DNA from: Botryllus schlosseri
Taxonomy: Eukaryota
Assembly: GCA_051294905.1 (NCBI GenBank)
Contig: CM119372.1
Coordinates: 31,622,001-31,686,000 of the forward strand
Direction: 5' to 3'
Length of the DNA: 64,000 bases
Shown here: in pieces, positions 1,481 to 38,142 of the stretch
How the letters are laid out: every line of letters starts with the position of its first letter
Numbering within the stretch: position 1 is the first letter of the stretch
Notes under the pieces: generated by a model
What the model was told of the DNA's origin: nothing
The model's input: only the letters and a program-made list of their open reading frames with translations
Databases searched by the model: none
Program-made: the position numbers and the translations under genes

Positions 1481-1560
1481 TCCAAGTCTGAAATCTGAAA
1501 ATCGGCATTGTTCCGAACGATCGCTCGATAAAATTCCCATTATCATGGTCAATTATTCAT

Positions 1561-4500: not shown

Positions 4501-4620
4501 CGGGCCTGGTACTGCAACTGACTTTATAGTGAATATAGCGACTATCCTTATTTCAAACATGACTATCCCTATTTCTGACATGACTATCCTCATTTCAAAC
4601 ATGAGACTCTCCTCATTTCA
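1561..4620. repeat. Complex satellite of ~20/40-bp units with higher-order duplications
   Basis: Dozens of degenerate copies of TCGGACATGGTGTCTTGGGCGTGTTCGGCCTGTGTTGACAC. Two blocks of a 20-bp AAACATGACTATCCTTATTT unit (~2375-2560, ~4540-4620). A 389-bp near-perfect tandem duplication gives identical 62-aa ORFs at 3723 and 4112. Confidence 0.95.
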
Positions 4621-4925
4621 AACAAATCTGACCGTATTTCAAACCAATCGAACCAACCCTGTAGGCTGAGACCGGCATACCGTTTGTTTTGATATGTTGT
4701 AACGCTTCGTTGATTACACCATAGATATCCTCGAAAGCACTAGATCGACAGCGACGTGCGTAGGGTAATAAGGGCTCGGATATTCGCGGTGATTGCAGTC
4801 GAGTTCACAATTATGGGATGAGATTCATTACATATTCTCATGAAAAAATCAATTTGTGACACTTAGGTGAATTCAATCATTATAATACTTGGGTATATGA
4901 AAGATGACATCTAATACATCAAATA

Positions 4926-6966: not shown

Positions 6967-7004
6967 CGTTGCTGTTGAGCAGATTAGCAAGGGCGCATAA
7001 CCTT

Positions 7005-7268
7005 TGATGAATAACTCAGAATCTAATCCGATTTACCTGCGGCTTGAGATTCTTATTCAAACACCAGTCCAACACACAGAAGAGTATTTTTACAGCGTAC
7101 CTGTTCAATACAGCGAGCGACGTCTCCAAACTTTCTTAAAAAAGTGCCACGAAGTAAGCACACTGGCCAGATATTATACGCGGCATTATGACGACACAAC
7201 ACAATCAATATTCCAAAACACTTCTAACTAGTAGGCCTACAGCGAACATTATTTACAACAGTCTAACA
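7005..7268 (-). repeat. 5' LTR of the copia element
   Basis: Begins TGTTAGAC and ends TTCATCA, 2 nt before the PBS. The outer boundary cannot be confirmed without a second LTR. Confidence 0.65.
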
Positions 7269-7590
7269 ATGTCTCAACCTCAAGCGTTATAAAATTATCA
7301 TTTTCAACAATATGCACTTTTTCGCCTTCTCGGAATCGGGTATCAATGTCAGCGAGTTGCTTCTGATGATGACTAGAAATCACAACTCCGCTGTCGGGTG
7401 GTTAAAACGTGGACTATGAACATACCCGACATTTGCCATCCTGAAGGAATATTTATTCGTAGTATTTCTTACTACAAATTTGAGAAATGTGCTAGATAAA
7501 ATATATGCATTTTTCAATCCATTCTCAGAATTGCTTCGCGTGCCGGATGAATTCATTTGGCGGGTCATATGTTTGACACCCCTGATATAG

Positions 7591-8015
7591 CTATATACAG
7601 TTAATGACGTATTTTATTTGCAGCTCTACGTGTGCGTGAGCGATGCAACGCATTTTTGCACGTATATTTAACTTTGTATTCGTTATTTGATTCAAAATGG
7701 TTGGCCAGTTAATGTCTTTAACACAGATAGCTAAATGTAATGACTTTGAATGATCACTCATACATCGAAAATTCAATTTGACTTGAATTGTGACTTGATT
7801 CGTGATTTGACTTGACTTGATTCGTGATTTGACTTGACTTGATTCGTGATTTGACTTGACTTGACTCGAGTCACCTCCCAAAAACGAGCGACTTGATTTG
7901 ACTCGAGTCACCTTCGAAAATCGATTGACTTGACTTGACTTGACTCGAGTCAAAATTTGTAATGACTCGAGATGAATCATCGTGACTCGAAGGTAGTGAC
8001 TTGATCCCAACACTG
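7591..8015 (-). mobile_element. Partial hAT MITE with GACTCGAGTCAAGTC subterminal repeats
   Basis: Terminus GATCCCAACACTG at 8003-8015; reverse complement of the left half of the full copy at 18200-19131. Confidence 0.85.
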
Positions 8016-8024
8016 CTCCATCAT

Positions 8025-8165
8025 AGTTTCCCTCGACCCTATTCAGCAGTTCTGGGTGTCTAGCGAGAAAGCTGGTGGTTTTAGGTTAGAATCTTTAGTC
8101 TGGCCAGGCTGGCAATTGAACCACATTGAAGAAGCCGGACGCACTACAATTGCATTATATCGTCA
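8025..8165 (-). mobile_element. Degraded copy of the tRNA-derived SINE
   Basis: TTAGAATCTTTAGTCTGGCCAGG...ATTGAACCAC...GAAGCCGGACGCAC aligns by eye with 60-150. Confidence 0.55.
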
Positions 8166-9622
8166 GTTATTGACTTACTGCCAATTAGTTTATTTTTCTT
8201 ATTACAAGCTTCATGCGGCACTGAGGAGCGCGGATACTTCGTATTAGGATGAATATTGATGGCATGGATGCCATCAGAAGGTGGATGAATGAGGCTAATA
8301 CAAACCTGGAATTAACATTGGGTACGGATACCACGCTGCAACTTTCAAGAGGTAACTCCGTTTGCATAGAATTGTTTCGGTTTGGATAATTATTTATTAA
8401 AATTAGAAAATAATTACAAGTTGCGCAAAGTGCCCAAAGTAGAATATAATTTGATCCATAATGACATTATATATATCGGCTTCAAACGTTTTTGTTTATT
8501 GATACGTCGCTACTTATAGTATTATGAGAGGAAATGAGATCGCTCCGTGAAAATTAAATGAAAGTCAGATGTGACATCGTGTTAAAAATAGTGCATTATC
8601 TAAATTCCACATGACGCTGCCTCAGGGATTAGTGTTAATTCATAAAAATGTAATCATGGTGTACAGATAATATGTCATATGTGATGTATTAATTCATTTC
8701 CCTCCATTCCATCGGCGGCTTTATCTGATCATTGGTATACACATTTTCTAAACATCATTTACGAATGAAGTTCAGATGGATTCCGTTGCTAGTGAACACA
8801 TAGCAACCAAGTTCGCCTGATTAGCCCATAGCCTATTACTCTTAAACACAATTATGCTTTTTATTTGTAGTCTCGGTAACCAATAAACATTTTGAATCAA
8901 TAAGCTACGAGCATTGAATAATCTGTGTTAGGTTCCAAACCAGACACTGTGGTCCATTACGTAAGTTGGGTTGTAGGGTATAAGCGACAAATGAATTTGG
9001 TGTAGGTGCGGTGATAATAGAAGTCGTGCCGTTAAAATCTGACAACACAAGCTGGTAAATTCGTTTATTTAGCCTGTACTCTCTCCTTCTCAAACATCAT
9101 GCACAAGTATCGAAGAGCGACCTCGATATCAGGCCGAAAATCGAAGCGGTCGTTCTGCATGCTGAAATCCCGAGCGAAGTCAGATGCTACCCGATATCTT
9201 CGCGGTGAAAATCACACGTACGTGACCAGCAACATGTAACTTATACTTTGCATCTTATGTTTTTCCATGTATTCACTGAAGAGGTCTATACACGAGTGCC
9301 AAAACAAAGAAATACCCTCTGGGTTCGGGTTATTAGTTATTTTTATCAGTTCAATTCACTACAAAATTGCGATACAATGAAAAGATAAGGGGGTGTCGAA
9401 CGACGTGGAGAAGTCTTTGAAATCAAACGCGCACCTTGACCTTGGCCAGGGGTCGGGAACTGTTTTCGTTAAAAGAGCCATATTGATCCAATATTTCCAA
9501 CTGCATTTCCCAAAGAGCTATATGAAAGCCGACCAACAGTTACGTCACAATTGTATATTCGTAACATCACGCAAAATGATATCGAAGTTCACTACATGGG
9601 ATGCGTCATATGGTGTTATTAC

Positions 9623-10172
9623 TAGGGCTGGGCAAAATGATTCGAGTACTCGAATCTGAATCGAGTATTAATTTTAATGATTCGAGTTGAGTAGTGAAAT
9701 ACGATTTTTTCGAGTACTGAAATTGTACGCTCCTCGCCATTGCAAGTTAATTTATCAACGAGAATTGAGGTTTCGGTATGGCACTGTGGAGGCCTTGAAA
9801 CCTTGATTGGCCAATGGCCATATAGCAGCATACGAAACATTGTACAACGCCACGAACGCTAATGGAATTAGCACAATTACGTAGTCATGATCATCCTACA
9901 ACATTGTCACGAATTGCAATGAAATCGGTATGGTCGAAAAAATACCAAAGTATCTTCAATGTAATGCATAACAGGCATTATATTTTTTGTGGTGGCATAA
10001 AAGGCTCATATTTGAACTTGTAGATATTGTACTCTGTTATGACGTCATAATGAGTGATACTCGATTACTCGACTTGACTCGACTCGAAGCATAATACGTG
10101 ATTCAGAATCGAACCACTCAGGTATTCGATTTTGCCCAACCCTAGTTGCCCAGCCCTAGTTGCCTAGCCCTA
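9623..10172. mobile_element. MITE with TAGGGCTGGGCAA TIR and TCGAGTACTCGA subterminal motifs; right end triplicated
   Basis: Left TAGGGCTGGGCAAAAT; right ATTTTGCCCAACCCTA followed by two further TTGCC(C/T)AGCCCTA copies. Confidence 0.75.
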
Positions 10173-10523
10173 TTACACCTGCACCCGCACTAATCCAGCC
10201 GGTTGCCAGACATTTTAGCATGCAAAACTTGCTTAACTATAGCATTTTCCTGAGGGCTATATGACTTATGTAGGATATTCGTCGAAACTCCAGGCAAGAC
10301 ATGTACATTAGAGCAACATCAACAATTGCATACGACAATAAAAGTGTGAATCTGCTGTTTATTTTTCAGTAACACGCTGTTTACATTTAGGCGGCTTTTC
10401 ACGCGGAATTCGTACAGCACGCTCGACGGTTTCCGTATCTCAATTCCGAGGGTTTTCCTACCTCACGGAAAGTTAAATCAGTTTCCAATACCGGGATAAT
10501 AACTTCAGCGACGGAGCACAAGG

Positions 10524-11830
10524 GTGACTGATATCATTTGGTTAACGTTACTACTCAATTCTCACTTTCTTCTGTATTACCGATACGTAGATGATAGTTT
10601 CGTGGTTTTTCAAAACAAGCGGCAGTGTAATGTCTTTTTCGACAAACTGAATCCATTGCACCATTTTCTTAAATTCACCGGGGAAAAAGAACATATTAAT
10701 TCTCTACCATTTCTTGACGTATTGGTAGGGAAACTGGACCATCAATTCGTAACGTCATTTTACCGTAAACCGACATTCACCAGACATTATGTCCGGTGGA
10801 ACTCTTTCTGTCCGAAGATGCGGAAATTAAATTTGATGGGCATTCTTGTCCAAAAATCCCCTATGATTTGCTCCAATGGATAATTGACTTGGGAATTGGA
10901 GTGGATGAGATCTATTCTATCGAAAAAGGGCTATCCTGATAGCATTATACGCTTCGCAATTGGGAAAAATGCGAATATTTAAACGACCGATTAAAGTTGG
11001 AACAAACAAATGCCAAGTCTATATCCACTTTACTTGACTCAGCCCCATTTCGAACAGATTTACTAAATTAATTCGAACAAGTGTTGAATCTTTTTATTAC
11101 ATTGTGAATGGAAGAATTGTTTGCATGACCAAACAAATTTTTTTCCAACACTCAAAAGGATGTGTATCACGCTTTTCATCAAAGTATGGTTATTTATTAG
11201 TACAAATGCCACTGTGACAGTGGGTATGTGCGACGCACATCTCAACGTTTGTTGGAACGCATTAAGCAGCACGTTCCTAAAGTAATACTATATATCGACA
11301 TCACAGCCGCTCGATTTGGAAAATCTGGCACATCAATGCAAAAAGGCATCAAACAGCGCATCATCCAACCAAGTACCAGCGCGCAATTCATCCATCGGTC
11401 GACATTTAATTGATAACCTGGTTTGTGCCCACAACTATTTCGACGATATGTTTTCTGTTCTGTCCAAGGGCAGAACCACGTGCCACTCAACAGCATTGGA
11501 ATCGACGTTCATTAAACTGAACAATCCGGTCCTATGCCGACAGAAAGAATATTTGTACAACCTTAAGATCTCTTACTAGTTGCTGTGTGTCTTGCTATCA
11601 AACACCGTTTCCTGTTCCTGTGTAATATTACATTTGCTATGTGAATTCTATCATTTGTGTCTCACGCTCGCTACGCTACCGTTGCTATACGCCGCATTGT
11701 TGCTGTGTTCCGGCTCCATTGATGTTATCTATAAATTCGACATTATTGCGTCATAATTCTTCATTTGGTTTTGAATTCAAATCTGTTGTATTTCCTTTAT
11801 CGTGCCGGCAGCTCTTGATAAGTGGCACGC
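10524..11830 (+). mobile_element. Penelope-like retroelement fragment (RT C-terminus plus GIY-YIG endonuclease), degenerate
   Basis: YYRYVDDSFVVF, LKFTGEKE..SLPFLDVLV and FYRKPT motifs, then VIY*YKCHCDSGYVRRTSQRLLERIKQH, SSIGRHL and ALESTFIKLNNPVLCRQ. Several stops and frameshifts. Confidence 0.88.
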
Positions 11831-11862
11831 GAGAACTTCCTGGAGTATCAATGAAGTATAGG

Positions 11863-12190
11863 CGGGTTACCACACGTTCTCCTTTAGGGGGATTTATCCT
11901 CCTTTTTCAGGTTTTTAAAAATGTCCTCCGAGGACGCCCAAATGTCCTCCTTTTTGGAAGTTCCTCATCCTTTACAGCTTTTAGAGCTAAGATAGTGGAT
12001 AGATGCGAGAGAAAACGGGCATAAATGACGATAAATAGGAAATTCGTGTTTCGAACGAAAGTGACGACCTTTTTTATTTCAACCGACCACGAAGTCGGAA
12101 AAAAAATCCTGGATTTTCCTCCGGTATTCTAAGTTTGAAAACTTTGAAAAAGTGTCCTCCTTTCCCGATTCCAAAATATGGTAACCTTAC
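11863..12190. mobile_element. Short MITE (GGGTTACCA...TGGTAACC) with TCCTCCTTT motifs
   Basis: Imperfect inverted termini and repeated GTCCTCCTTT; sits in the 3' flank of the Penelope fragment. Confidence 0.6.
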
Positions 12191-12559
12191 AATAAAGGTT
12201 TATCATGAACGTACTTTTGAACGCATCTCTGTATTAGTTGCTGATTCATACACTTCTATCGTTTTATCCACCTTTTAATTTTACAGGATGAAATATAAAT
12301 CATGTTTGAATGATTTAAACATATATTAGAATATCCGTGGCTTGTCTATGTTATAAAACTTATAACATATGAAAAAAGAAGGATAATTTGAAATAAATAC
12401 TTCCATGTTCATTGTACAGCGAATATTTCGAGCTGTGCTATGATGAAACAATTTTGCATGCCATCGTGAATAATATGTACGCATATGTTTAGAGGTTATA
12501 TGGAAGTCATTAAACCATCACTGGGACATATAATTTTCGAAATAACTTTGTAATACTGT

Positions 12560-12724
12560 TCGAGTCGGAGATAGAGTTGGAGTCGGAGTTCTGTGAGGAA
12601 AATAGACGGAGCCTGAGCCGGAGTCGGAGTCGGGGCGTTTAATCGGAGCGTTTAATCGGGCGTTTAATCGGGGCGTTTAGTCGGAGTTGGAGTCGGTACT
12701 AAAATTTGTCGACTCCACAGCACT
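12560..12724. mobile_element. MITE end with GGAGTC/GACTCC repeats
   Basis: (GGAGTC)n array ending GACTCCACAGCACTG; same family as 50076-50238. Confidence 0.65.
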
Positions 12725-14145
12725 GGAGTTTCCGAATAAAGCTCAGAATTGTAAGAATAAATCGCAGTTTTTTTTCGTTCAATTTTACTTCTGTTACGTT
12801 GCTGAGCAGGTCAGCCGAATATAGTGGTTGTCCGTGTTTCCGGTCTCTGAATTAAGCAGAGTAGACTGTATATATGTGTAATAATTTCAACGTTTGCTCA
12901 TCTTGAACGGAGCTTCCTAATGCAGTTGCAAACGCTTGGTCTTTGAAGGATTTAATCGACTGAAAGTCCATCCTACAATATGCAATCGATTTCTCCCTGT
13001 TCTGTATTGAAGTTCCATCATTATCTCCGACATCATCAACAACTTCGCCCAAGCCTGTACGCACGGCCATATGTGGGAAGCTGGAGACTATGTGGGCAGT
13101 TATGGCAAATATGAAATTATGAACTCGTCAACATACGCCTATCAATACTATAGCAACGTATACAGGTATTTTAGAACGATTTATATATCTGTCAAATTGA
13201 AGTAGTCAAGAAGCGCTACATGAAATCCTGCGTCACGCGAAACACAGATATCGATCCAACTTATGTATACTGTGTTAACACGTATGATTGTCATCTCAAT
13301 TTTAGTTTTTCTGAGAAGGGAAATTCCCGTCCAATTGATTTCTATGCACCCGACCGTTTAATGTTCATAGTGACATCGGTCTTAAGTTATAGTAGGTGGC
13401 ACCTTAAAAGGCTCTAGGCCCCATGATTGCCTAGTGGTTCGCATTTCTCAAAGATCGGTTTTAGTGAGCTAATATTTTCAGAAATGAGCCACCGATAGAA
13501 TTCTGTTCATTTGCATTCTCTCATTCGTTACACCAGGCAATATAGGCAAACTACCCGATGCGGGTCTCAACCTCCACATTGAGGTAACTCTGCCTTGGAG
13601 ATTTTGCAATCAGTGGTATGGGCTTTCGACACAATTACATTCCAGCATTGATTACCTCACACGTCGACACCCGACGTTCTTTTTAAGGAACCACAGCTAT
13701 ATTTATAATAGTATATATTTAATGTTCGGATAATCATACTCAACATGACCCGCCGGCGATAACATTCAACTACACAATACACATCATATAGGCCTACTTG
13801 GAAGGTCGTTGTTATTTCTGGGAAGGTTGCGTGTTTGCGAGGTAGGTCTACAGCCTTAGTGCATTATGTCTTGAACGAAGGGGAGTTTGGTTTATTCAAA
13901 GCGGTTCAGTAAGCGGAAGAGTAGCTTAGGCTGATTGACTTAAACTTGGGTGAATTCCTTCACTGATATTGGCCCTGGTCGCTTTTTGCCTAGATGATAT
14001 AATGTTAGCATGTCTTATTAAATATGTAATAGTTCGCATTCCGCAATAACGATATCTTAAACTGTGCGCTGTGCTCTTGCGCAAAGACTGTACAGGAGCT
14101 GTGTAACCATAGATGCGAATAATTATCGACTTATATCAACTAAAC

Positions 14146-21963: not shown

Positions 21964-23023
21964 CCCTAAGTAATCTAGAGCAGTGGTTCTCAACCACCGG
22001 TCCGAGGACCGGTGCCGGTCCGCGACAACATTCCTGCCGGTCCGCCAGGTATATGACAGTTTTATACTTCAATATCAAGATGCAATGTTGAAGGCTTGTC
22101 CTTTGATAAAATAAATAAAACATCTAATTTTAAACTGATTCAAAACTTCGTGAGGTAACGTTCGGGCTGGAAACATGCTCGATTTGACTTAAAGTTCAAG
22201 ACGTTTCATTTGACGACATGCGAGCGACAAATACAGAACAGATACGAGCTCACTCATCGCTAAACAGCGCAGTTTGATCATTGGTTTTCGATTCATTTAT
22301 TTTGGGCAGGACCGTAACTGGGGCACACCAAACCGCCCAATTGGAGAGGGGCCGAGCTTGAAAAGGGCCCAAAATTATTTCGCAAATGAACATAAATCAT
22401 AGCGTTTTATTTAAAACATTTTCCAACATTTTTCAATTTCTTTTCGGGCTTTGCACGATTTAGTGTCCCTAAATGTCTTGCTTATTAGGTGCCCTTCTTC
22501 GAGAAATACGCATGATTATAGGCATTTCGGCGTCAGCCATTACGGCGCCACGACGTACCAACACATAATGAAGTTTAGGTTAACATAGGGGACTCCGAAA
22601 TTTGGGCCAAAAATTCGGCCGCGAGAAAACCGCTTCAGTCGTGAATGATTGAAAATTTTCGCTATTGTCGCGATAAGCTACGTTAACTCTCTGCTTACGC
22701 TGAGTAGAATGGATGTGATCACAAGTACAGGTGAAAACTTCCACCCAAGTGTAGGATCTTGGGGCGAAGCCCCCGAAAGTTTGGCTTATCGCCCTGTGGG
22801 GGCCCCAAGACCAACATTTTTGGGGTGGGCTGACGAAGTGCTTTTTCGGCCCGGATTTGCGCATGACCGGTATAACTGCTGTAATGTGTTTTCTTGCGGA
22901 ACGCATTGTATTCGCAGTTGCCTGAGTAGCTTGCGTCTGGTGGCAGTGGGCGATGACCAAGGTAGCACGACAAGGTGCCTCGACTCGGCAGACTCACTAC
23001 CATAAAATCACATGGATGCCATC

Positions 23024-26000
23024 AGTAGTATATACGATCGGTCGCGAACTAGCGTTGGTTCTTATGGGCCCGCTCGTGACTTGCCGCGAAAACTCGTGTT
23101 GGTGACCACACCCTTTTAGACCCCCTATCGCTGGTGACTTGCCATTGTTTCTTATGGGATCTCTGGTGACCCCACCCTTTTAGGTATAGTAATCGCTCAT
23201 GACCTGCCGTGAAAACTCGTAGTGATGATGGTACCCTTTCAGACCCCCTATCGCTCGTGATGTGCCAATGGTTCTTATGGGATCTCTGGTGATGTGTCAT
23301 TGTTTCTTACGCGGTCTCTGGTGATGTGCGATTGGTTCTTATGGGATCTCTGGTGATGTGCCATTGTTTCTTATGGTATCTCTGGTGACGGCACCCTTTC
23401 AGGTATAGGCTGCGTCGGTGATGTGCCTGTCATGTATTCTTACGGGATCTGTGGTGATTCGCCATGTGTTCTTATGGGTGCGGCCGTGAATTGTCCTTTC
23501 GGGTAAAGGCATCTCTCGCACGTCGTACTTTCGCATGTCGTGCTTTCGCGTATAGGCTGTGTTGGTGATTCGCCATGTGTTCTTATGGGTGCGGCGGTGA
23601 TTCGTACTTTCGGGTATATACATCTCTCGACCGGTGTTGAATATGTATCAAGTAAATAGTTATGTGAATGAATCTTTGTTAATGTGTATATCGTGCCGCA
23701 CTAACGGAAACGCGGCTTGTTGTGAGGATTAAGCAGTGCGACCTATATTTCGAATGACCTGTGTGTGGAATTGTTTCACGGCCAGCCGCGTGCTACTATC
23801 GATTATTACACTAATCCAGTCAGCACTATTACATTCAGGAGTATTCAGTATTCAGCAGCGACACGAAAAGCGATCAACAAATAACCGCGTTCACAAACTA
23901 ACACTTCAAAAATGTGTGAAATAGTTTACAAAACCCCGCGATCGCTGACAAGATAATGTCTCGGGCATAACCATTTTAGTGACTTGGTGTTACAGACATA
24001 CCGATCGCTCACAAGGTAATATTTCGGTAATTAGTTTGTCACAGAGCCGTCGCAGACGGTGATTCGAAAACCAACAATTTGACACTTTCTGGTGCTTGCT
24101 ATATGTTTTGACACTTCGGAACGTGGTTGACTTTAGTTGTATGATAAGAATCATGTGAATATACAAGTAATGTGTTAATTTGTCAACTTGAAATGAAACT
24201 TACTGCACAAACCAAGTTGATTCGTATCTGAATGTGTTAATTCGGTACAATTCTAATTATTTTGAGAAATCTTTTGATTCGACCGTAACCGAATATTACT
24301 GACACCGACTTTCAGCCGCATCGAATTATTCGCACATTCCGCGCCGCTGTTTTCGCACTTTATTCACAACTCTATTCACGGTCTGGCTTTCCGTTTGTCA
24401 AAGAGATATTTTTACATCTTACCATACTCAAAAGAATTATTCACAACATTACCAATTGTTAAAAATCTAGTTTTCAATTACTTGATTATATCACTGCAAC
24501 TCATGAATTTGAATTAATTCATCCTGGTTGTATTCGTATGCTCGGTCTTTTTTTATTCGATTGTAAAGGTTGTTACTATTCTGAAGACAAAGTATTTACT
24601 AATCGGTGCATATACGTTTTGACTTGGACATATTATATTTTGAGTATACGAGATTTGAATGTCTGAACAATAACTGAGAAATAATTTATCACAATTAAAT
24701 CCGTTTATTACAGCGTAAAAGATATATGAATGTCAGCAACTCGGTAAGATCATAGTTACTACCACATTACCTAATTTACCCGACCAACTCGTCATGATCA
24801 TTCCCGAAATCAACACAAACATGACTACTGACTTGAGTTAACCACAAAACAGCATCAAGTTTTAAATCCACTTGTAGCTTACGGATTATTTGAATGCGGG
24901 TTATGTTTTGTTGTAATTGAGTGTACGGAAATAGTATTACGTCTTGACATCTTACCATCTTACGATATTCAAAGAGTCAACCACGAAAACATTGTCAAGT
25001 AAATCCGTTACCCGACCAACTCAAACAGTATCAGTACGAAAAACAACCGAACATGCACGAGTCCATACAATCACTAAAACCTAAAATCCATAACAAGTTC
25101 GGTTGTATTCATATCCCTACACATCTTTTTTTTTTTTATTCAACTTGAAAAGTCGTTACTATTCTGTAAGATAGAGGAATTACTACGCGGTATATTCTGC
25201 AAGACAAACAAATTACTACTCGGTATATTTTGTAAGACAAAAGTAATTACTACTCGGTGCGCGCAACTTGAGATTAACATATGTTTTGAGTATACGAGAT
25301 TTCAAAGTCCGAGCAACGTAGTTGAGAATTCATTTCTTACAATCGAACGCAGGTGTTATATTGAATATTATCATGATGTAATCATAAGGATTGATACTTT
25401 AGTTTGACATACGAGATTTTGTAATAGTCTATCATGACTTGATTATTGAATCATGACGTAATTAAACCGGTGTTGGTTATTGTGATATCAACAAACTTTT
25501 CAGGGATATTTTTAATTAACGCATCGATTTGTAAAACGAGGACTTGCATGTGCGAAATGTTTTTGATCGGGAAATTAATCCAGGATCGTTCGAATCGTGT
25601 GATCAATATTTAATCCTTTCACACCCACCATTGTACGTGCTAAATGTAAAAAAAATTGTGAAGTCTATAGATCTACACTTCAAGGTTTTGATCAGCACAG
25701 AAGCAATTGTAATATCGTTACCGATGCGTCCTATTCCACAGACTTGGTTAATACAAACTCATATCAATAATAAAATCACAGTATGTGCTACACTGAAATC
25801 TACAGAAAATGTCTTTGTATTGCTGCTCATAGTAGTGATATCGATTTTAACCTCCAGAATAATTGTCATCATCTAACCAAACTACTGAAATTCGTTGTCA
25901 ATTTGTCTGATGTTCTCTGAATGCATACTAGAACTATTTGCGCAACACACACGATCAGAGAAATTGGAAATTTTCCCATCGTCATTCGTCAAAGTAAATG

Positions 26001-29000
26001 TCGTCACAATACTCAATCACTAAAAAAACGATATACTTGTATGTGATTGAATCACCGGTAATTAACTAGCTAAATCAAACCCCTAAGAAATTTCACTCAC
26101 TCATTGGGTATGAAACAGCGTCGCTTAATCGGTCTATATCGTTTTTCTAAAGGTAAATCATATCCATCCAATAGAAAACAATTTTCACTCACTTGATTAA
26201 TGAAACCGAGATCGACATTCGATATTTTGTTTGCGGGAAATACTTTGCAATAAACACACTGGAGTGTTTGAGCTTTAACATCGTCAAGCTGTCATTTGCA
26301 TCGTTTAATTAACCAACATTTAGCGATTGGTGAACATACCAAACGATACACATCCATCTCCGAAATACTGCATTGATCGTAATTTGCATCATCGTGATAA
26401 TCGAAGTACATTTCTTTCGAATTCGTAACTACCGGCGTTTCTACGACATGATAAATTTTTTGACAAGTTATGCTTAGAAGATTGGTTGCATATCGCGAAA
26501 AATAATATACCACTCATATTGATACTGTTACTCCATTGATCGATATTTTCAAACGAGTAAAATTTATTACTTGAGTTTCTCCGCTTAATGTAAATGCAAA
26601 CTCAGCCGTCTTTTAACATCACAAAGGCATTGATAAAAAGTAGACAATCAAACGCTACAAGTTTAACTTTTGTAGGTTGTGTATGATTACCCCACGCAAC
26701 TCATTTCTTACCAAAAGTAGATGAAATATATTCATGGTACACGAAAATACTCGACATTCCCATGCTACGAACCTGTACAATGATTGGTGACGCTTTCAAA
26801 ACTGTTTCGATACCTCAAGGCCTTTATTGTCTGAATGGATGTTCATGTATCTTAATAATCAAATAGTTCAACACAGAACTAGTACGAACAGAAACACCAG
26901 AGTTGTTTACACAAAAGTTTGTATGTGTACAGTATGCGAATACCATGTGCAAGTCCAGCACAATTGTGGTATCCACCCGAGTTTAGTTAACACAATTTAC
27001 GACACCGAGGTCGCGTCATCTTTCGTAAGACAACAAACCAAGGCTTCAGGATATGTCCATGTCATAGCAATAAATCAGCTACTCCAACAACAGAGTACAT
27101 ATGTTTTTAGTTACGGTGCTTACATCTTTCACATAGATCAATCTAGTTTGCTAACGAAAAGTGCTGAGTCATCACATGATTGCCCTCACAACAAAACAGC
27201 TAGAAGATATTATCATACAAAAATATTCCTAACCCTTTGCCCACCAGTGACAAATCATACAACAAACATTTTTTGTGAGTCGAATTGTTGTTCAGTGTCA
27301 AGTCTACCTGTTGAAACGTACATTAAAACAACACAGTCACAATTCAATTAAAACCACGAATCTATTTTCATTTCGTCACATACAGAAAAATAAATTTCCT
27401 TTCCCCAACACATACTTGTAACCAATCGCTTTCATTAAACACACAACTTCATAAAAGTATTTACTTTCTACAACATAGACATTCCGATGTAGTCAAGAAA
27501 TATTTTTATTAATCAAAATCATCGATTTCTGTTCACGGCGTTAGTGTGTGCATGTCATAGCGGCGGGCCCCGTATTAAAACGGACACGACACGACTGAAT
27601 GTAAGGGGGTAGTCTATCGCATCGATTTACATGTGGTCTTCGCTACGGTTTCAAAAAACGAATCATCCATTTTGCATTGATCGAGACCGAGCGAACCAGT
27701 TACATGTATTCGCGGTAATGATTTTGTTTGTCATATGCGAATGGTAGGGTTGCTACTCTGACAAATCAACATACAACAATCTTAATAATAGCAATTTCAT
27801 TTTCCGCCCCTTCATAATTGTATACGCACGAAAAGTATATTGTACAACTCGGCAACTTCGTTTAACAAGACCAATCACACTACCAGCGTTGAACACAAGA
27901 TACCTACCCAAGTCAAAAATATCATACTGGTTTGGACAACTGACGTTTACCTGTGTAAAATTGTCATTTTCACTTGGAGGTCCACCGTTACCTAACTAAA
28001 ATACCATTGTCCTTTGGGGATTTATCGTTAACCCAGTGTAACAAACCCCTTTTCACTTGGAAATATATTTTTACCCTGGATAACAAACCCCTTTTCACTT
28101 GGAAATCTATTTTTTCCCTGGGTAACAAACCTTTTTCACTTGGAAATATATTTTTTCCCCGGGTAACAAACCTTTTTCACTTGGAAATATATTTTTCCCT
28201 GGGTTACAAACCTTTTTCACTTGGTGGTCCGTCGTTTACTTGAGTAAAAATATCATTTTCCTTTGGGGGATCTGGCGTTTACCCAGTGTAACAATACATT
28301 TTCTCTTGGTCATCTAGCTTTTCCTAGAGTAACAAAACCATTTTCATTTTGAAATCTGACAAACACACCTGACAATTTGATATTTTTGTATATTGTTACA
28401 ACGGATAGCGACAAAATATACACCAACAACAACTCCAATACATTTCTGTAATCACATATTCACTTGTGCTGATGCAACCCATCAAAATCATCGGTTACCC
28501 ACATGCAATGTGCTGTTGTACATCGACGTTTATGTTTTTGGAAAATTGGACAATAGGCTTCGATAGTTCTGTGATGTCCGGGTTCGTGCTTCGGATTTTC
28601 CAGAGTCAAAATGTCTGAATAAAACACCTCCTTGACGATGGTTGGTATGTGGATAACGGTGTTCGGAAAACGATTGGATTTATGTCACCCATCGCGATAA
28701 CAAATTCCAGGTCGAGTTTTCCTCCCGCATGTTTACTATATTGTGTCTTTATTGGTCAATGTATGTCTCGACATTCGGTTTGAAATCGGAAACCCTGATA
28801 AAGTATGTAACCGGATCCGGATATCAACTCTGAATCGATAAACCAATGAACAATACTCAAAGTAAACATGTTACACCCTGTGTTTCCACGAAAAAAATAC
28901 CATCCAGACATACGTCGCGCTTGTTTGCCCACATCAGTATACGCGTAAATGGAGGTGTGTGACATTGCATGCAATGTGTTGGTATACAAACATCGATCCA

Positions 29001-29102
29001 CAGACATTATCATAGCCGGTAGTTTTGATGTAGATCGAATGTCATCAAGCACACCCGATAACAATGTCATACCAATAAGCCCCATTGCAATTACTCTGAG
29101 TC
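23024..29102 (+). repeat. Left arm of the giant inverted repeat (6079 bp)
   Basis: Reverse complement of 30090-36633; mirrored ORFs in the track (e.g. 26292- vs 32770+, 23736+ vs 35733-, 23399- vs 36034+). Confidence 0.97.
27950..28350. repeat. ~41-bp tandem array inside the left arm (mirror copy ~30840-31330)
   Basis: Unit GGGTAACAAACCTTTTTCACTTGGAAATATATTTTTCCCT with degenerate outer copies. Confidence 0.9.
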
Positions 29103-30089
29103 AATCTGAAGCATGACATACAGACACACAAACATGGAACCCTAACATGGGTTATTCGCACGACGGTGAAAGTGAACTATACAACACATACCAATTGGGC
29201 GTTCACAGTCGAATATGCGAACCATGCACAATCATATACCCTGATTTTTGTTGGATATGTACGAAACCGATAAATCGATAGATTTCTTTTCCTTCAACGT
29301 CAATAATACAAAGGTCATTCCAATTCATCGCTCGAATGTGAGGTTCGTCTGGTGTAAAATTCATGTCAAATAACACCAAAGTGTGCCTTCCGTGTTTTAT
29401 TATTTCCACCGATGCATCTTGTCTGTGTCGTAACACTATGGTGCGGGGAGTTGAAAAACGGTGAATTGTGAAACGGATTGACATGACCAACAGAATCGAC
29501 GTCAATAGACTTGTGACGATGTCGTTTCAAAATGCTACCGATATGGCAAACTGAGAGCAGCGTCAATAGCCTTGTGGTGATGCCGTTTCAAAATGTTCTT
29601 CGATATGACGAGAGCGACCTCGATCTCTTGTGGTGATGACCGTTTCGAAATGTCACCGGACGAACTGGACCCTTACGAAAGTGTGTTTTATGATTGCGTG
29701 TGAAATCACGAAAGGTAGTGTTCTATTGTGGTGCACGATCACAGTCTTCATTCCACAGAAACATACCTTATTGGATCACAGTATCAGTCCGAGATTTGCA
29801 CGATATTTATCTGGAGTCGTTATGTGGGAGTAGCGACATCCATTGATCGTGACTGAAAGACTGATCGCAATCATTTCGAGCACCGTACTTCGATAGTTCA
29901 CCTTGGTCAAACGCTGCAATCTCAGCAGAAAACTTCGGTGTCGACAACACGACGGATATTGACCGATGTATCCAATTGGTCTGGGTGGTCTGTCCGGAGA
30001 TAGGACCATTACTATCTTGTAATGTTACAACACGATAACACCATCGAGTAAATCAATGAACGGTGCCGAAATATCGATGTAATAGCGCG

Positions 30090-33000
30090 GACTCAGAGTC
30101 ATTGCAATGGGGCTTATTGGTATGACATTGTTATCGGGTGTGCTTGATGACATTCGATCTACATCAAAACTACCGGCTATGATAATGTCTGTGGATCGAT
30201 GTTTGTATACCAACACATTGCATGCAATGTCACACACCTCCATTTACGCGTATACTGATGTGGGCAAACAAGCGCGACGTATGTCTGGATGGTATTTTTT
30301 CGTGGAAACACAGGGTGTAACATGTTTACTTTGAGTATTGTTCATTGGTTTATCGATTCAGAGTTGATATCCGGATCCGGTTACGTACTTTATCAGGGTT
30401 TCCGATTTCAAACTGAATGTCGAGACATACATTGACCAATAAAGACACAATATAGTAAACATGCGGGAGGAAAACTCGACCTGGAATTTGTTATCGCGAT
30501 GGGTGACATAAATCCAATCGTTTTCCGAACACCGTTATCCACATACCAACCATCGTCAAGGAGGTGTTTTATTCAGACATTTTGACTCTGGAAAATCCAA
30601 AGCACGAGCCCGGACATCACAGAACTATCGAAGCCTATTGTCCAATTTTCCAAAAACATAAACGTCGATGTACAACAGCACATTGCATGTGGGTAACCGA
30701 TGATTTTGATGGGTTGCATCAGCACAAGTGAATATGTGATTACAGAAATGTATTGGAGTTGTTGTTGGTGTATATTTTGTCGCTATCCGTTGTAACAATA
30801 TACAAAAATATCAAATTGTCAGGTGTGTTTGTCAGATTTCAAAATGAAAATGGTTTTGTTACTCTAGGAAAAGCTAGATGACCAAGAGAAAATGTATTGT
30901 TACACTGGGTAAACGCCAGATCCCCCAAAGGAAAATGATATTTTTACTCAAGTAAACGACGGACCACCAAGTGAAAAAGGTTTGTAACCCAGGGAAAAAT
31001 ATATTTCCAAGTGAAAAAGGTTTGTTACCCGGGGAAAAAATATATTTCCAAGTGAAAAAGGTTTGTTACCCAGGGAAAAAATAGATTTCCAAGTGAAAAA
31101 GGTTTCTTACTCTGGGAAAAAATAGATTTCCAAGCGAAAAGGGGTTTGTTACCCAGGGAAAAATATAGATTTCCAAGTGAAAAGGGGTTTGTTATCCAGG
31201 GTAAAAATATATTTCATAGTGAAAAGGGGTTTGTTACACTGGGTTAACGATAAATCCCCAAAGGACAATGGTATTTTAGTTAGGTAACGGTGGACCTCCA
31301 AGTGAAAATGATAATTTTACACAGGTAAACGTCAGTTGTCCAAACCAGTATGATATTTTTGACTTGGGTAGGTATCTTGTGTTCAACGCTGGTAGTGTGA
31401 TTGGTCTTGTTAAACGTAGTTGTCGAGTTGTACAATATACTTTTCGTGCGTATACAATTATGAAGGGGCGGAAAATGAAATTGCTATTATGATCGGCAGA
31501 AGATTGTTGTATGTTGATTTGTCAGAGTAGCAACCCTACCATTCGCATATGACAAACAAAATCATTACCGCGAATACATGTAACTGGTTCGCTCGGTCTC
31601 GATCAATGCAAAATGGATGATTCGTTTTTTGAAACCGTAGCGAAGACCACATGTAAATCGATGCGATAGACTACCCCCTTACATTCAGTCGTGTCGTGTC
31701 CGTTTTAATACGGGGCCCGCCGCTATGACATGCACACACTAACGCCGAGAACAGAAATCGATGATTTTAATTAATAAAAATATTTCTTGACTACATCGGA
31801 ATGTCTATGTTGTAGAAAGTAAATACTTTTATGAAGTTGTGTGTTTAATGAAAGCGATTGGTTACAAGTATGTGTTGGGGAAAGGAAATTTATTTTTCTG
31901 TATGTGACGAAATGAAAATAGATTCGTGGTTTTAATTGAATTGTGACTGTGTTGTTTTAATGTACGTTTCAACAGGTAGACTTGACACTGAACAACAATT
32001 CGACTCACAAAAAATGTTTGTTGTATGATTTGTCACTGGTGGGCAAAGGGTTAGAAATATTTTTGTATGATAATATCTTCTAGCTGTTTTGTTGTGAGGG
32101 CAATCATGTGATGACTCAGCACTTTTCGTTAGCAAAGTAGATTGGTTTGTGTGTAAGATGTGAGCACCGTAACTAAAAACATATGTACTCTGTTGTTGGA
32201 GTAGCTGATTTATTGCTATGACATGGACATATCCTGAAGGCTTGGTTGGTTTGTTGTTTTACGAAAGATGACGCGACCTCGGTGTCGTAAATTGTGTTAA
32301 CTAAACTCGGGTGGATACCACAATTGTGCTGGACTTGCACATGGTATTCGCATACTGTACACATACAAACTTTTGTGTAAACAACTCTGGTGTTTCTGTT
32401 CGTACTAGTTCTGTGTTGAACTATTTGATTATTAAGATACATGAACATTCAGACAATAAAGGCCTTGAGGTATCGAAACAGTTTTGAAAGCGTCACCAAT
32501 CATTGTACAGGTTCGTAGCATGGGAATGTCGAGTATTTTCGTGTACCATGAATATATTTCATCTACTTTTGGTAAGAAATGAGTTGCGTGGGGTAATCAT
32601 ACACAACCTACAAAAGTTAAACTTGTAGCGTTTGATTGTCTACTTTTTATCAATGCCTTTGTGATGTTAAAAGACGGCTGAGTTTGCATTTACATTAAGC
32701 GGAGAAACTCAAGTAATAAATTTTACTCGTTTGAAAATATCGATCAATGGAGTAACAGTATCAATATGAGTGGTATATTATTTTTCGCGATATGCAACCA
32801 ATCTTCTAAGCATAACTTGTCAAAAAATTTATCATGTCGTAGAAACGCCGGTTGTTACGAATTCGAAAGAAATGTACTTCGATTATCACGATGATGCAAA
32901 TTACGATCAATGCAGTATTTCGGAGATGGATGTGTATCGTTTGGTATGTTCACCAATCGCTAAATGTTGGTTAATTAAACGATGCAAATGACAGCTTGAC

Positions 33001-36000
33001 GATGTTAAAGCTCAAACACTCCAGTGTGTTTATTGCAAAGTATTTCCCGCAAACAAAATATCGAATGTCGATCTCGGTTTCATTAATCAAGTGAGTGAAA
33101 ATTGTTTTCTATTGGATGGATATGATTTACCTTTAGAAAAACGATATAGACCGATTAAGCGACGCTGTTTCATACCCAATGAGTGAGTGAAATTTCTTTG
33201 GGGTTTGATTTAGCTAGTTAATTACCGGTGATTCAATCACATACAAGTATATCGTTTTTTAGTGATTGAGTATTGTGACGACATTTACTTTGACGAATGA
33301 CGATGGGAAAATTTCCAATTTCTCTGATCGTGTGTGTTGCGCAAATAGTTCTAGTATGCATTCAGTGAACATCAGACAAATTGACAACGAATTTCAGTAG
33401 TTTGGTTAGATGATGACAATTATTCTGGAGGTTAAAATCGATATCACTACTATGAGCAGCAATACAAAGACATTTTCTGTAGATTTCAGTGTAGCACATA
33501 CTGTGATTTTATTATTGATATGAGTTTGTATTAACCAAGTCTGTGGAATAGGACGCATCGGTAACGATATTACAATTGCTTCTGTGCTGATCAAAACCTT
33601 GAAGTGTAGATCTATAGACTTCACAATTTTTTTTTTTTTACATTTAGCACGTACAATGGTGGGTGTGAAAGGATTAAATATTGATCACACGATTCGAACG
33701 ATCCTGGATTAATTTCCCGATCAAAAACATTTCGCACATGCAAGTCCTCGTTTTACAAATCGATGCGTTAATTAAAAATATCCATGAAAAGTTTGTTGAT
33801 ATCACAATAACCAACACCGGTGTAATTACGTCATGATTCAATAATCAAGTCATGATAGACTATTACAAAATCTCGTATGTCAAACTAAAGTATCAATCCT
33901 TATGATTACATCATGATAATATTCAATATAACACCTGCGTTCGATTGTAAGAAATGAATTCTCAACTACGTTGCTCGGACTTTGAAATCTCGTATACTCA
34001 AAACATATGTTAATCTCAAGTTGCGCGCACCGAGTAGTAATTACTTTTGTCTTACAAAATATACCGAGTAGTAATTTGTTTGTCTTGCAGAATATACCGC
34101 GTAGTAATTCCTCTATCTTACAGAATAGTAACGACTTTTCAAGTTGAATAAAAAAAAAGATGTGTAGGGATATGAATACAACCGAACTTGTTATGGATTT
34201 TAGGTTTTAGTGATTGTATGGACTCGTGTATGTTCGGTTGTTTTTCGTACTGATACTGTTTGAGTTGGTCGGGTAACGGATTTACTTGACAATGTTTTCG
34301 TGGTTGACTCTTTGAATATCGTAAGATGGTAAGATTTCAAGACGTAATACTATTTCCGTACACTCAATTACAACAAAACATAACCCGCATTCAAATAATC
34401 CGTAAGCTACAAGTGGATTTAAAACTTGATGCTGTTTTGTGGTTAACTCAAGTCAGTAGTCATGTTTGTGTTGATTTCGGGAATGATCATGACGAGTTGG
34501 TCGGGTAAATTAGGTAATGTGGTAGTAACTATGATCTTACCGAGTTGCTGACATTCAAATATCTTTTACGCTGTAATATACGGATTTAATTGTGATAAAT
34601 TATTTCTCAGTTATTGTTCAGACATTCAAATCTCGTATACTCAAAATATAATATGTCCAAGTCAAAACGTATATGCACCGATTAGTAAATACTTTGTCTT
34701 CAGAATAGTAACAACCTTTACAATCGAATAAAAAAAGACCGAGCATACGAATACAACCAGGATGAATTAATTCAAATTCATGAGTTGCAGTGATATAATC
34801 AAGTAATTGAAAACTAGATTTTTAACAATTGGTAATGTTGTGAATAATTCTTTTGAGTATGGTAAGATGTAAAAATATCTCTTTGACAAACGGAAAGCCA
34901 GACCGTGAATAGAGTTGTAATGTTTCATTACTTGTTTCAAATCAATGTGTGTATAATATCGAAACGGGACTGTGGGGAAGTTGGTAGTCATGTTTGTCAA
35001 TCCTATTTCAATTCACAATATGTCAAAGTCCAAATATTTCATTTTGGATTATCTGGATTTAGCTTTAGTACACCCCGCGAATGGATTCCGACACCGTACT
35101 ATAACGTTTTTGATAATAAGGACTCGAGGATTTTCAATCAACAATACTGGAATTTTTTGATAATGTTAGAGCTGGCAAATGATTAGTTGCGTGTTTTTGT
35201 TAAGAGTTTGATTTCGTGATGATAAAGACAATAACTGTATAATACACATACTTGTGATTCTTGATTCTTGTAGAGTTATAGTTGTATTGATTCTATAAGT
35301 GCGAAAACAGCGGCGCGGAATGTGCGAATAATTCGATGCGGCTGAAAGTCGGTGTCAGTAATATTCGGTTACGGTCGAATCAAAAGATTTCTCAAAATAA
35401 TTAGAATTGTACCGAATTAACACATTCAGATACGAATCAACTTGGTTTGTGCAGTAAGTTTCATTTCAAGTTGACAAATTAACACATTACTTGTATATTC
35501 ACATGATTCTTATCATACAACTAAAGTCAACCACGTTCCGAAGTGTCAAAACATATAGCAAGCACCAGAAAGTGTCAAATTGTTGGTTTTCGAATCACCG
35601 TCTGCGACGGCTCTGTGACAAACTAATTACCGAAATATTACCTTGTGAGCGATCGGTATGTCTGTAACACCAAGTCACTAAAATGGTTATGCCCGAGACA
35701 TTATCTTGTCAGCGATCGCGGGGTTTTGTAAACTATTTCACACATTTTTGAAGTGTTAGTTTGTGAACGCGGTTATTTGTTGATCGCTTTTCGTGTCGCT
35801 GCTGAATACTGAATACTCCTGAATGTAATAGTGCTGACTGGATTAGTGTAATAATCGATAGTAGCACGCGGCTGGCCGTGAAACAATTCCACACACAGGT
35901 CATTCGAAATATAGGTCGCACTGCTTAATCCTCACAACAAGCCGCGTTTCCGTTTGTGCGGCACGATATACACATTAACAAAGATTCATTCACATGACTA

Positions 36001-36633
36001 TTTACTTGATACATATTCAACACCGGTCGAGAGATGTATATACCCGAAAGTACGAATCACCGCCGCACCCATAAGAACACATGGCGAATCACCAACACAG
36101 CCTATACGCGAAAGCACGACATGCGAAAGTACGACGTGCGAGAGATGCCTTTACCCGAAAGGACAATTCACGGCCGCACCCATAAGAACACATGGCGAAT
36201 CACCACAGATCCCGTAAGAATACATGACAGGCACATCACCGACGCAGCCTATACCTGAAAGGGTGCCGTCACCAGAGATACCATAAGAAACAATGGCACA
36301 TCACCATAGATCCCATAAGAACCAATCGCACATCACCAGAGACCGCGTAAGAAACAATGACACATCACCAGAGATCCCATAAGAACCATTGGCACATCAC
36401 GAGCGATAGGGGGTCTGAAAGGGTACCATCATCACTACGAGTTTTCACGGCAGGTCATGAGCGAGCCCTATACCTGAAAGGGTGGGGTCACCAGAGATCC
36501 CATAAGAAACAATGGCAAGTCACCAGCGATAGGGGGTCTAAAAGGGTGTGGTCACCAACACGAGTTTTCGCGGCAAGTCACGAGCGGGCCCATAAGAACC
36601 AACGCTAGTTCGCGACCGATCGTATATACTACT
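30090..36633 (-). repeat. Right arm of the giant inverted repeat (6544 bp)
   Basis: Near-identical to the left arm except scattered substitutions, an extra 378 bp (34919-35296) and two extra ~41-bp repeat units. Confidence 0.97.
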
Positions 36634-38142
36634 GCCATCATGAATATAATTAAATGCGATCAAAACCCTTCAAATGTCACTCTCTAGCACCATTTCATTG
36701 CAAAAAACGGCTGCATACTTTACATTTTGGCTTCATTTCAATTTTGACAGTTCACCGGTCCGCCAGACATTTTTTGAAATTTTACCGGTCCGCGAGTCGA
36801 AAAAGGTTGAGAACCACTGATCTAGAGTCTGTCAGCCGTCAGTAACATCGAATGCAGCAACGAAGACATAGGTGCCGCCGCGCCGGCTTGTGACGACATA
36901 ATGAATACTTGTCGATTGTCGATAACATCATATCGTTGCACTAGAACGCACTTTACTCCATGCCATTTCTGTGTACAGCATTAAAATTCTGATGCGTCGT
37001 TTTAACACTTGCACCGTACTCGTTAACATTAAGCCATACATCTCAATTCAATCTTTGTGCAATCAATGTGCGATTATTATTCAACTGTAACTGTAGTAAG
37101 AGCAATATGGGCGGATATAACGACGTGATCAATAGAAATTCGATTTGTACCAAATGGCCGATTGTTTGACGTTCGATATTGGTGCCCTCGTTACCAGTCC
37201 ATCCGGTGTCGATCAAGTTTATCGGAATATAATATATTCCTGTTGGAACGAGTCGAATAATCGAATTAAACACTGTGCCATGCACACTGCGCCATGCCCA
37301 TAACGAATTAATCTATGCAGTTGCACATTGCACATTTACAAGTCTACGAAACGAATGATTACAAATTGGAAATCGCATATCATATCAGTAATTTGTCTCC
37401 AACATAAAATACCATGGGATTTTGGGCTACACTTCTACCATCCCCTATTTACGCTAGAAAATCCTTACTGGATTGAATGACGATGATGCGCAGAAGGCCC
37501 TAATGAAATCCAATTAGCGTGCATAATTGCATACTCAATAACACTTTCCAATTTCGCGGTCCGATTAAAGAACTATCACGAAAGAACGAGTATTTGCTCA
37601 TCCGATTCATAGCAACGATGAGATGGAATTTCTCGGCTCGTGCTCGTCATATTGACATGTGCAACGAAATCACGATTTTATCCTCTCTCCCATTTCGCGT
37701 AATACATAGTGATCATTATTTTCGAACCGTATACAACTGGCCAACTAGGTTGTGCTGATGATAAAATTGCGGGCATGCCGAATACCCACAATATTCACAG
37801 GCATATTTCGCATACCGAGGCTCGGCACTAATGTATGAAAATTGAACATTGAACATACGACTGCTCTACTGTTAATTTCCCAGGAACATGGTTAGTCGGA
37901 AAAGGTAGCACCAAAGAAGCAAAGATTCTTAATTTCGCGAAGTTCTGCTGTTGAATTATGTGAAATCAGCAAATATGGTTATTGCATATATAATAGCATC
38001 TTATGAAATACGTCGGAGCCGGAGCCACCCCTCAAATAACTGGCTCCAGCTCCGGCTCCGGCTGAATTTTATGTAGAGCTCCGGCTCCGGCTCCAGCTCC
38101 GGTAAAAATGCGCGGCTCTGGGGCTCCGACTGCAAAGCCCTG

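Follow-up and report, generated by a model that had tools for sequence, protein, structure and literature searches.

Many eukaryotic DNA viruses are believed to descend from Polintons, also called Mavericks, and to our knowledge neither their replication nor the formation of their virions has ever been directly observed. In the portions of the literature cited here, a Polinton is defined by encoding both a polymerase and an integrase (PMC5499653), vertebrate Mavericks bear an (AGT)2//(ACT)2 end motif together with a perfect 6-bp target-site duplication (TSD) (PMC8097293), and terminal inverted repeats (TIRs) are reported at 46–1,447 bp (PMC8097293) or 100–1,500 bp (PMC10748475); corals were searched with TIR bounds of 100–2,500 bp (PMC11131425), and gene-bearing butterfly Polintons have TIRs of ∼2 kb (preprint 10.1101/2025.02.07.637071). 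Here we analyse a 64-kb stretch of the 495-Mb genome of Botryllus schlosseri (contig CM119372.1, positions 31,622,001–31,686,000), referred to throughout as the window, which contains a palindromic element with Polinton-type ends; all coordinates of the element are window positions. We put at roughly 80% the probability that this element is one copy of an abundant, non-autonomous palindromic family derived from the genome's own Polintons.

The element has the end motif and the 6-bp TSD of a Polinton, the latter present as a single copy at empty sites, and its 13.6 kb falls within the length range given in the excerpts cited. It departs from a Polinton in its inverted repeats, which are 6,079 and 6,544 bp long instead of 0.05–1.5 kb and thus exceed the reported TIRs by a factor of 4–100, and in the absence of a polymerase, an rve integrase and the capsid/ATPase/protease module. 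Because the polymerase and the integrase are what defines Polintons, the element is not itself a Polinton; with the termini and TSD of a partner, no enzymes of its own and multiple independent insertions, it is best classified as a non-autonomous Polinton derivative.

Adenoviruses replicate by protein priming with panhandle intermediates, and defective genomes of adenovirus in which one end is duplicated in long, inverted form were reportedly described by Daniell in the 1970s. Snap-back or copy-back defective genomes, as presented in the part of PMC13506859 used here, resemble our element in being palindromic with both ends alike, in lacking essential genes and in having a helper with the same ends. 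The element differs from them in belonging to an inherited germ-line family of apparently hundreds of copies with one ancestor, a conserved loop and exchanged termini. The two halves of a snap-back genome come from one parental end; the element is palindromic, and the sequence that it shares with a helper amounts to the outer 0.8 kb in the window copy and to 1.7–1.8 kb in three relatives. The repeated by-product origin of snap-back genomes is at odds with the conserved spacer and junctions of this family.

MITE-like derivatives (MITE denoting a miniature transposable element with inverted repeats) and Foldback (FB) or Galileo elements are alike in sharing the termini and TSD length of a partner, in lacking a transposase of their own and in outnumbering that partner, and Foldback and Galileo also have long, internally repetitive inverted arms. 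MITE-like derivatives are miniature, however, whereas this element is as long as its putative helper, which would be a self-replicating, virus-like element and not a cut-and-paste transposon. The TSD is 9 bp in FB and 7 bp in Galileo, and the partner transposase is of FB or P type; here both the ends and the 6-bp TSD are of Polinton type, and the only coding elements that we found with these ends are Polintons. Satellites in the world of polinton-like viruses, namely transpovirons (PMC5499653) and virophages, are likewise linear with inverted ends and exploit the replication and packaging of a related or larger virus, but they have genes of their own and exist as free or virion-borne DNA, whereas only integrated, mostly gene-less copies were seen here. 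In the full-text literature we found no fold-back, defective or non-autonomous Polintons apart from a remark on Tlr1, with Repbase reports and subscription papers outside the scope of that search.

Architecture of the element and its family

As read from the window letters, the element is a 13,610-bp insertion at 23024–36633 with AGTAGT...ACTACT ends. Its left boundary (23018–23029) reads ...GGAT GCCATC and then AGTAGTATATACGATCGG / AGTAGTATATACG from the element start, and its right boundary (spans 36617–36645 and 36621–36639) reads CGATCGTATATACTACT / CGTATATACTACT and then GCCATC ATGAAT. The insertion lies in an older dispersed repeat, for which the genome search returned 40 scored matches at 92–100% identity and 1,880 first-look candidates. 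Two paralogous copies of this repeat, on C16 and C3, are uninterrupted and read CACATGGAT GCCATC ATGAATATAATT; since these empty sites hold a single GCCATC, the boundaries and the 6-bp duplication are proven, just as a preliminary description of this DNA had claimed. That description had also recognised Polinton/Maverick ends, and rightly so: PMC8097293 gives the (AGT)2//(ACT)2 motif, in combination with a perfect 6-bp TSD, for vertebrate Mavericks.

Self-comparison aligns the two arms in three blocks of 98.4%, 99.5% and 98.4–98.6% identity. An inverted repeat of 6 kb at 99% identity is far beyond chance, and the arms make up 93% of the element. The earlier estimates of ∼6.1 and ∼6.5 kb at ∼99% identity agree with the measured lengths and an identity of 98.4–99.5%, and the spacer of 987 bp stands as described. 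The arms differ in length mainly by a 375-bp stretch found in the right arm only, plus the copy number of a 41-bp tandem array. A near-identical sibling (C11:4.93M) has the 375 bp in both of its arms, so the left arm of the window copy carries a deletion. Each end of the element holds eight TTCTTATGGG motifs within ∼570 bp; the window contains 22 matches to this motif versus 4.3 expected, 16 of them in the two element ends, and the arrays are candidate binding sites for helper proteins.

The longest stop-to-stop frame in the element has 186 codons, and none of 22 open reading frames (ORFs) of at least 70 codons, drawn from the left arm, the spacer, the spacer/right-arm border and the extra stretch of the right arm, reaches a Pfam cut-off, which agrees with the earlier statement that no long ORF is present. 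The element contains no tRNA and no Rfam match, and a tblastn search with 12 ORFs of the coding elements described below (the helpers) found no match in it to the helper polymerase, rve integrase or virion-module genes. A transposase, of whatever kind, was absent from all 10 fold-back copies searched. At the inner arm end (28756–29100, mirror 30090–30434), the ∼150 bp adjoining the spacer are invariant in the four copies compared, which keeps a frame of ∼110 codons open; this block is perhaps a cis element and not a gene. A 114-codon frame at the inner arm end was considered as a gene and rejected, its being open in four copies being explained by the invariant DNA block and coding not being demonstrable. 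In one bulk RNA run, 62 reads touch the stretch, 60 of them only partly, which carries no inference on expression.

A genome search with the terminal 601 bp gave 2,213 first-look candidates, of which 40 were scored, yielding 71 matches. We sampled 10 loci at which plus and minus terminal matches face each other 8–15 kb apart. Nine of these end-pairs are fold-backs, with arms of 3.8–7.0 kb that are 98.3–99.97% alike within a copy, and all 10 have the AGTAGT...ACTACT end motif. Perfect 6-bp TSDs, all mutually different, flank nine of the 10 end-pairs and eight of the nine fold-backs. Seven TSDs of the 10 (window included) start with CAC on one strand: CACACA, CACATT, CACGTA, CACAAC and CACGTC, and also GGCGTG and GACGTG when these are read on the opposite strand. 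Such CAC-initial sites may hint at a target preference.

The spacer of the window copy occurs in seven of the nine sampled fold-backs at 83–94% identity, and neither the remaining two nor the coding copy contain it; genome-wide it has 45 matches, 34 of them full length (40 scored of 1,007 candidates). Its orientation relative to the chromosome varies among copies, which is uninformative, the element being symmetric. A 1.2-kb core of the arm yields 17 inverted plus/minus pairs and six singles on many contigs (40 scored matches, 2,128 candidates), and the ratio of about two arm candidates per spacer candidate fits a fold-back architecture genome-wide. These candidate counts, which are unscored and therefore rough, suggest hundreds of copies, perhaps ∼1,000. 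Because the spacer and the arm/spacer junctions are conserved, the family goes back to a single palindromic ancestor and has evolved since as a heritable lineage, not as a series of recurrent by-products. The many loci with their own TSDs exclude a one-off rearrangement or an assembly artefact for the family. Of the proposals in the preliminary description, the mobile family with further palindromic copies that share the spacer and have different TSDs is thus upheld, and its copy-back defective origin, if read literally as recurrent events, is contradicted by the conserved spacer and junctions.

Coding elements with the same ends

The tenth sampled end-pair (C11:4.49M) is a coding element of 13,196 bp with a TIR of ∼1 kb and the TSD CACGTA; the TIRs of coding relatives measure ∼0.4–1 kb. 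One of its ORFs matches rve (E 4.2e-15) and Chromo (E 4.2e-9), both above the Pfam cut-offs. A 432-aa ORF has 26 diverse relatives, and its structure model reaches a predicted local distance difference test (pLDDT) score of 85.3. Foldseek places this model among the double-jelly-roll capsid proteins of iridovirus, PBCV-1, Sputnik and mavirus, with E-values of 1.8e-16 to 1.9e-12 among the chains listed and 265 PDB chains at E ≤ 0.001, and viral capsid models also dominate the matches in a viral structure library. A PDB profile search with the capsid alignment gave chance matches only; it is the structure comparison that confirms the fold of the predicted model as that of a double-jelly-roll capsid protein. 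Penton-like paralogues are presumably encoded as well, a motif reading of ours without tool support.

A 658-aa ORF of the same element is an internally deleted form (473 codons missing) of a 1,131-aa ORF at C7:25.1M. The terminus of this second element, AGTAGTATATATGATCGGTCGCGAACTAGCGT, is identical to the window end in 31 of 32 bases and continues into the same subterminal repeats. The 1,131-aa ORF has 5,205 relatives at E ≤ 0.001. Seven of 30 scanned relatives, the three closest included, pass the cut-off of DNA_pol_B_2 (PF03175), a family of organellar and viral protein-primed polymerases; the ORF is thus, transitively, a predicted pPolB-family polymerase. Near its residues 220–240 there is a sub-threshold C2H2 zinc finger, and in many of the relatives C2H2 fingers are clearly present or the C terminus carries a NADAR domain.

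The coding population is large and looks young: 50 of 67 polymerase matches fall in frames that stay open for 1,100 codons or more, and among 97 capsid matches 76 keep the 432-codon frame intact, at 95–98% identity. The polymerase lineages, with frames of ∼1,130, 1,212 and 1,295–1,300 codons, are only 72–86% identical to each other, versus 95–98% for the capsid. This contrast suggests either module exchange between lineages or very uneven constraint.

Taken together, coding elements with the same termini, which the preliminary description had predicted, were found with an integrase, a pPolB, an ATPase (below cut-off) and a capsid protein, and they are Polintons. Several observations weigh against this assignment or against the derivation of the fold-backs from such elements. 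The A32/AAA-like ATPase matches of the C11:4.49M ORF concerned are those that stay below the Pfam cut-off. The 1,131-aa ORF itself has no match in Pfam PF03175, PDB sequences or PHROGs, which is why the polymerase assignment is transitive, and the 658-aa ORF has no family match either, a further search yielding unnamed relatives only. A six-frame genome search with PF03175 was empty, as it was in every control genome, and is hence uninformative. The protease is a putative one, read from motifs and confirmed by no tool. The link between fold-backs and coding elements rests on the shared ends and the shared TSD length, and the remaining 4.3–5.3 kb of each arm and the loop have no match in one whole coding copy plus 7.7 kb of another.

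What the fold-backs do share with the helpers lies at the ends. Between the window element and the C11:4.49M copy, only the outer ∼0.8 kb is homologous. When the 12 helper ORFs were searched with tblastn against the window element and 17 fold-back loci, a single gene, o217, was matched. This frame of 211–217 codons adjoins one end of coding Polintons; it is absent from the window copy and intact in both arms of three of the nine sampled fold-backs. In these three, both arms run co-linear with that helper end which carries o217 over 1.7–1.8 kb, at 83–95% identity, before they diverge. The proposal that one Polinton end was copied over the other therefore stands for the outer 0.8 kb (1.7–1.8 kb in the three relatives) and, in the coding sequence compared, finds no support for the remaining 4.3–5.3 kb of each arm.

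With dN/dS values (nonsynonymous over synonymous substitution rates) of 0.09–0.29 from small counts, o217 is under purifying selection. It has no PDB or Pfam match and one homologue outside this genome. A language-model search (score 0.95), besides our own motif reading, points to RPA-like OB folds, which we treat as a lead; the AlphaFold model (pLDDT 38.9) is unusable, so that the OB-fold reading gains no structural support. Coordinates of all features are collected in Table 1. Elsewhere in the window, positions 2001–4000 have a GC content of 0.52, above that of the rest, with strong GC and AT skew.

Table 1. Features of the window element and of its coding relatives (window positions unless a locus is given)
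Feature	Position	Strand	Remarks
Older dispersed repeat	22560..23017, continuing 36640-36783 and beyond	.	Scored genome matches
TSD, left copy (GCCATC)	23018..23023	.	Single GCCATC at two uninterrupted paralogous sites
Terminal 471 bp, starts AGTAGT	23024..23494	+	Exchanged relative to sibling; common to the Polinton lineage with the 1,131-aa polymerase
Left arm, 6,079 bp, non-coding	23024..29102	+	Self-alignment, 98.4-99.5% to right arm
Subterminal array, 8 TTCTTATGGG motifs	23059..23589	+	Motif count; repeat periods 32 and 123 bp
Site of the 375-bp deletion private to the left arm	24360..24362	.	Right arm and both sibling arms keep the stretch
41-bp tandem array, left arm	28038..28357	+	Mirror copy 30967-31237
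Spacer (loop), 987 bp	29103..30089	.	Conserved across family; absent from coding copy
Right arm, 6,544 bp, inverted copy of left	30090..36633	-	Self-alignment
375-bp stretch, right arm only	34922..35296	-	Arm alignment, sibling comparison
Mirror of exchanged terminal 471 bp, ends ACTACT	36163..36633	-	Sibling comparison
TSD, right copy (GCCATC)	36634..36639	.	Single GCCATC at empty paralogous sites
Putative polymerase ORF, 1,131 aa, at C7:25.1M	L051:287-3682	-	Homology to DNA_pol_B_2 relatives
o217	L041:7016-7669	+	Gene frame
o217	L050:1203-1853		Gene frame
o217	Both arms of L035/L036, L046/L047, L048/L049		Gene frame

Concerted evolution of the two arms

Within a copy the arms differ by at most a few per cent (98.3–99.97% alike), and aligned segments of different copies are 66–95% alike. 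The differences between copies are mosaic indels that are mirrored in both arms. The sibling C11:4.93M is 98.5–99.5% identical to the window copy over element positions 472–13139, and a four-arm alignment of the two copies (∼5,600 columns) has 12 sites that differ between copies and are mirrored in both arms, no site that is arm-specific and common to both copies, and 22, 12, 8 and 7 private changes in single arms. Arm-to-arm copying thus keeps the two arms evolving in concert.

The ends show the same behaviour on a larger scale. Over the terminal 471 bp, the window copy and the sibling are only 70% alike, with the switch at the identical position in both arms, and the two ends of the sibling are 100% identical to each other. 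In the clade closest to the window copy, most other members have the end of the sibling type, and at 90% identity this end also occurs on an element of 20.8 kb that holds a capsid gene and a polymerase whose frame has 1,295 codons. The window copy has thus taken over the ends of another lineage, and the change was mirrored.

We also built a tree from a 739-bp inner-arm block, using both arms of nine copies. In four of the nine, the two arms group together with strong support, and no strongly supported fork contradicts such pairing; the arms of the sibling pair weakly. Some points weigh against concerted evolution as a general rule, or against its taking place in a replicating form of the element. 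Three copies are not resolved in the tree, one arm of the C7:23.82M copy groups with another copy (support 89/99, below the tool threshold), and the right arm of the window copy is nearer, with weak support, to the sibling than to its own left arm. The sibling is the closest relative fetched and the sole close one compared in full. Finally, the C10:8.87M copy (C10:8866643–8882452) lacks a TSD, and beyond its two AGTAGT ends the inverted repeat goes on for another 1,126 bp at 99.8% identity.

The extension of the C10:8.87M palindrome corresponds to a module that lies ∼2.2 kb inside both arms of the C3:13.65M copy and that is present in 40 of 40 scored genome matches. A host flank was considered for it and rejected, since the segment belongs to the arms of the family itself. 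The module is continued on the left side alone, the right flank being an inverted copy of the left. This locus looks like a nested insertion that was followed by a fold-back extension of the palindrome, and it agrees better with arms being copied within the chromosome than with copying in a freely replicating form.

Proposed mechanism and competing explanations

The best reading of the sequence comparisons is, as the preliminary description had suggested, that the family is mobilised in trans as a satellite of the coding Polintons. A copy retains in cis the parts required by a Polinton, the (AGT)2 end motif and ∼570 bp of subterminal TTCTTATGGG repeats. As the element encodes nothing, its integration would be provided in trans by the rve-chromodomain integrase of the coding Polintons, which would generate the 6-bp duplication, and the helpers' protein-primed family-B polymerase would copy it, starting at the shared termini. 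The outer arm of the ancestor derived from the end of a Polinton that carries o217. During strand-displacing replication, a displaced single strand could snap into a hairpin or panhandle and be repaired or extended on the other arm; adenovirus ends are known to correct each other by the panhandle route. We infer that such snap-back repair or extension during replication is the most likely route by which the arms are copied, with odds slightly better than even.

The chief competitor leaves the element a Polinton-derived satellite and has gene conversion or fold-back repair in the chromosome alone keep the arms alike, in which case arm identity would tell nothing about Polinton replication. We regard it as a serious alternative, with a probability nearer to one third than to one half. 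The C10:8.87M copy is what fold-back priming at a chromosomal break would give, with no TSD and a palindrome reaching 1,126 bp beyond the ends, and the private, unmirrored changes (22, 12, 8 and 7) and the unmirrored 375-bp deletion indicate that homogenisation is not continuous. On the other hand, the mirrored exchange of the 471-bp terminus for that of another helper lineage would need two steps in the chromosome, an ectopic conversion and then arm-to-arm conversion across 30% divergence, where a replicating panhandle would need one, and both arms also mirror the extensive mosaic differences that separate copies. Replication and chromosomal repair may also both act. On a different view of the origin altogether, every palindrome arose anew as a copy-back defective genome, through a polymerase strand switch during the copying of one Polinton end, and was then integrated. 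Its appeal is the palindromic symmetry, as in the snap-back defective genomes presented in the excerpts of PMC13506859, and the three relatives whose outer 1.7–1.8 kb, intact gene included, are co-linear with one helper end at 83–95% identity. The window copy, however, shares only ∼0.8 kb with a coding element and leaves the 12 helper ORFs unmatched, and the spacer and its junctions recur in seven of nine fold-backs and 34 full-length genome matches while being absent from the coding copy. These results largely refute independent copy-back events, which we consider improbable.

Still less probable is a fold-back transposon of another superfamily, of the Drosophila FB or Galileo type, that has Polinton-like ends by resemblance only. 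Long arms with internal tandem repeats are indeed typical of FB-like elements in the text cited from PMC3573991, but resemblance would have to account for the 31 of 32 terminal bases and the subterminal array held in common with elements that encode an integrase, a polymerase and a capsid protein, as well as for the 6-bp TSD in nine of 10 copies and the failure to find a transposase in 10 fold-back copies. Nothing positive speaks for an assembly artefact or a single local inverted duplication, apart from palindromes being a known assembly hazard and no examined read spanning the element. This last reading is refuted for the family and of negligible probability overall: nine of the 10 loci sampled show the same architecture, as do 17 inverted pairs of arms spread over many contigs, the TSDs are specific to the sampled loci (nine of 10), the empty site of the window copy is exact, and family sequence covers all 30 bins of the examined stretch in contig sets from three studies.

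The ten fold-back lengths are 13,610 (window), 14,258, 14,711, 14,001, 8,601, 13,558, 13,840, 13,751, 14,857 and 14,394 bp, that of the C9 copy having been corrected by hand, and further end-pairs are mostly 12.3–16.2 kb apart. The helpers measure 13,196 bp (C11:4.49M) and ∼14.3 kb (C7:25.1M, from the positions of the capsid gene and the right end), and a further capsid-bearing element (C11:3.63M) spans ∼14.7 kb. In this small sample the non-coding fold-backs match the length of the helpers, which hints at the kind of limit that packaging would require; common descent alone could likewise give a helper-like length. Tentatively, and with clearly less confidence than for the snap-back route itself, the fold-backs may be satellites or defective-interfering genomes of endogenous polintoviruses. 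The terminal-protein/polymerase machinery of the helper would then replicate them, a snap-back intermediate would regenerate one arm from the other in each cycle, and helper capsids would package them, with the non-coding 'stuffer' arms holding the length at the helper's ∼14 kb. A swap of the terminal ∼0.5 kb would let fold-backs follow different helper lineages.

A gene-less palindrome family that depends on Polinton ends would be the first well-documented parasite of Polintons. If the unscored candidate counts hold, the family may take up about 10 Mb in order of magnitude, or a few per cent of the genome. Double-stranded RNA and chromosomal instability could potentially arise from its long hairpins. 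The mirrored mutations and terminus swaps constitute a natural experiment on how the two ends of such a genome communicate, and the similarity in length to the helpers is a hint, open to testing, that capsids package the fold-backs. Should the fold-backs prove to be satellites of endogenous polintoviruses, they would allow the single-strand panhandle step that has been proposed for the replication of Polintons to be read from sequence for the first time, and would indicate indirectly that virions are made by these Polintons.

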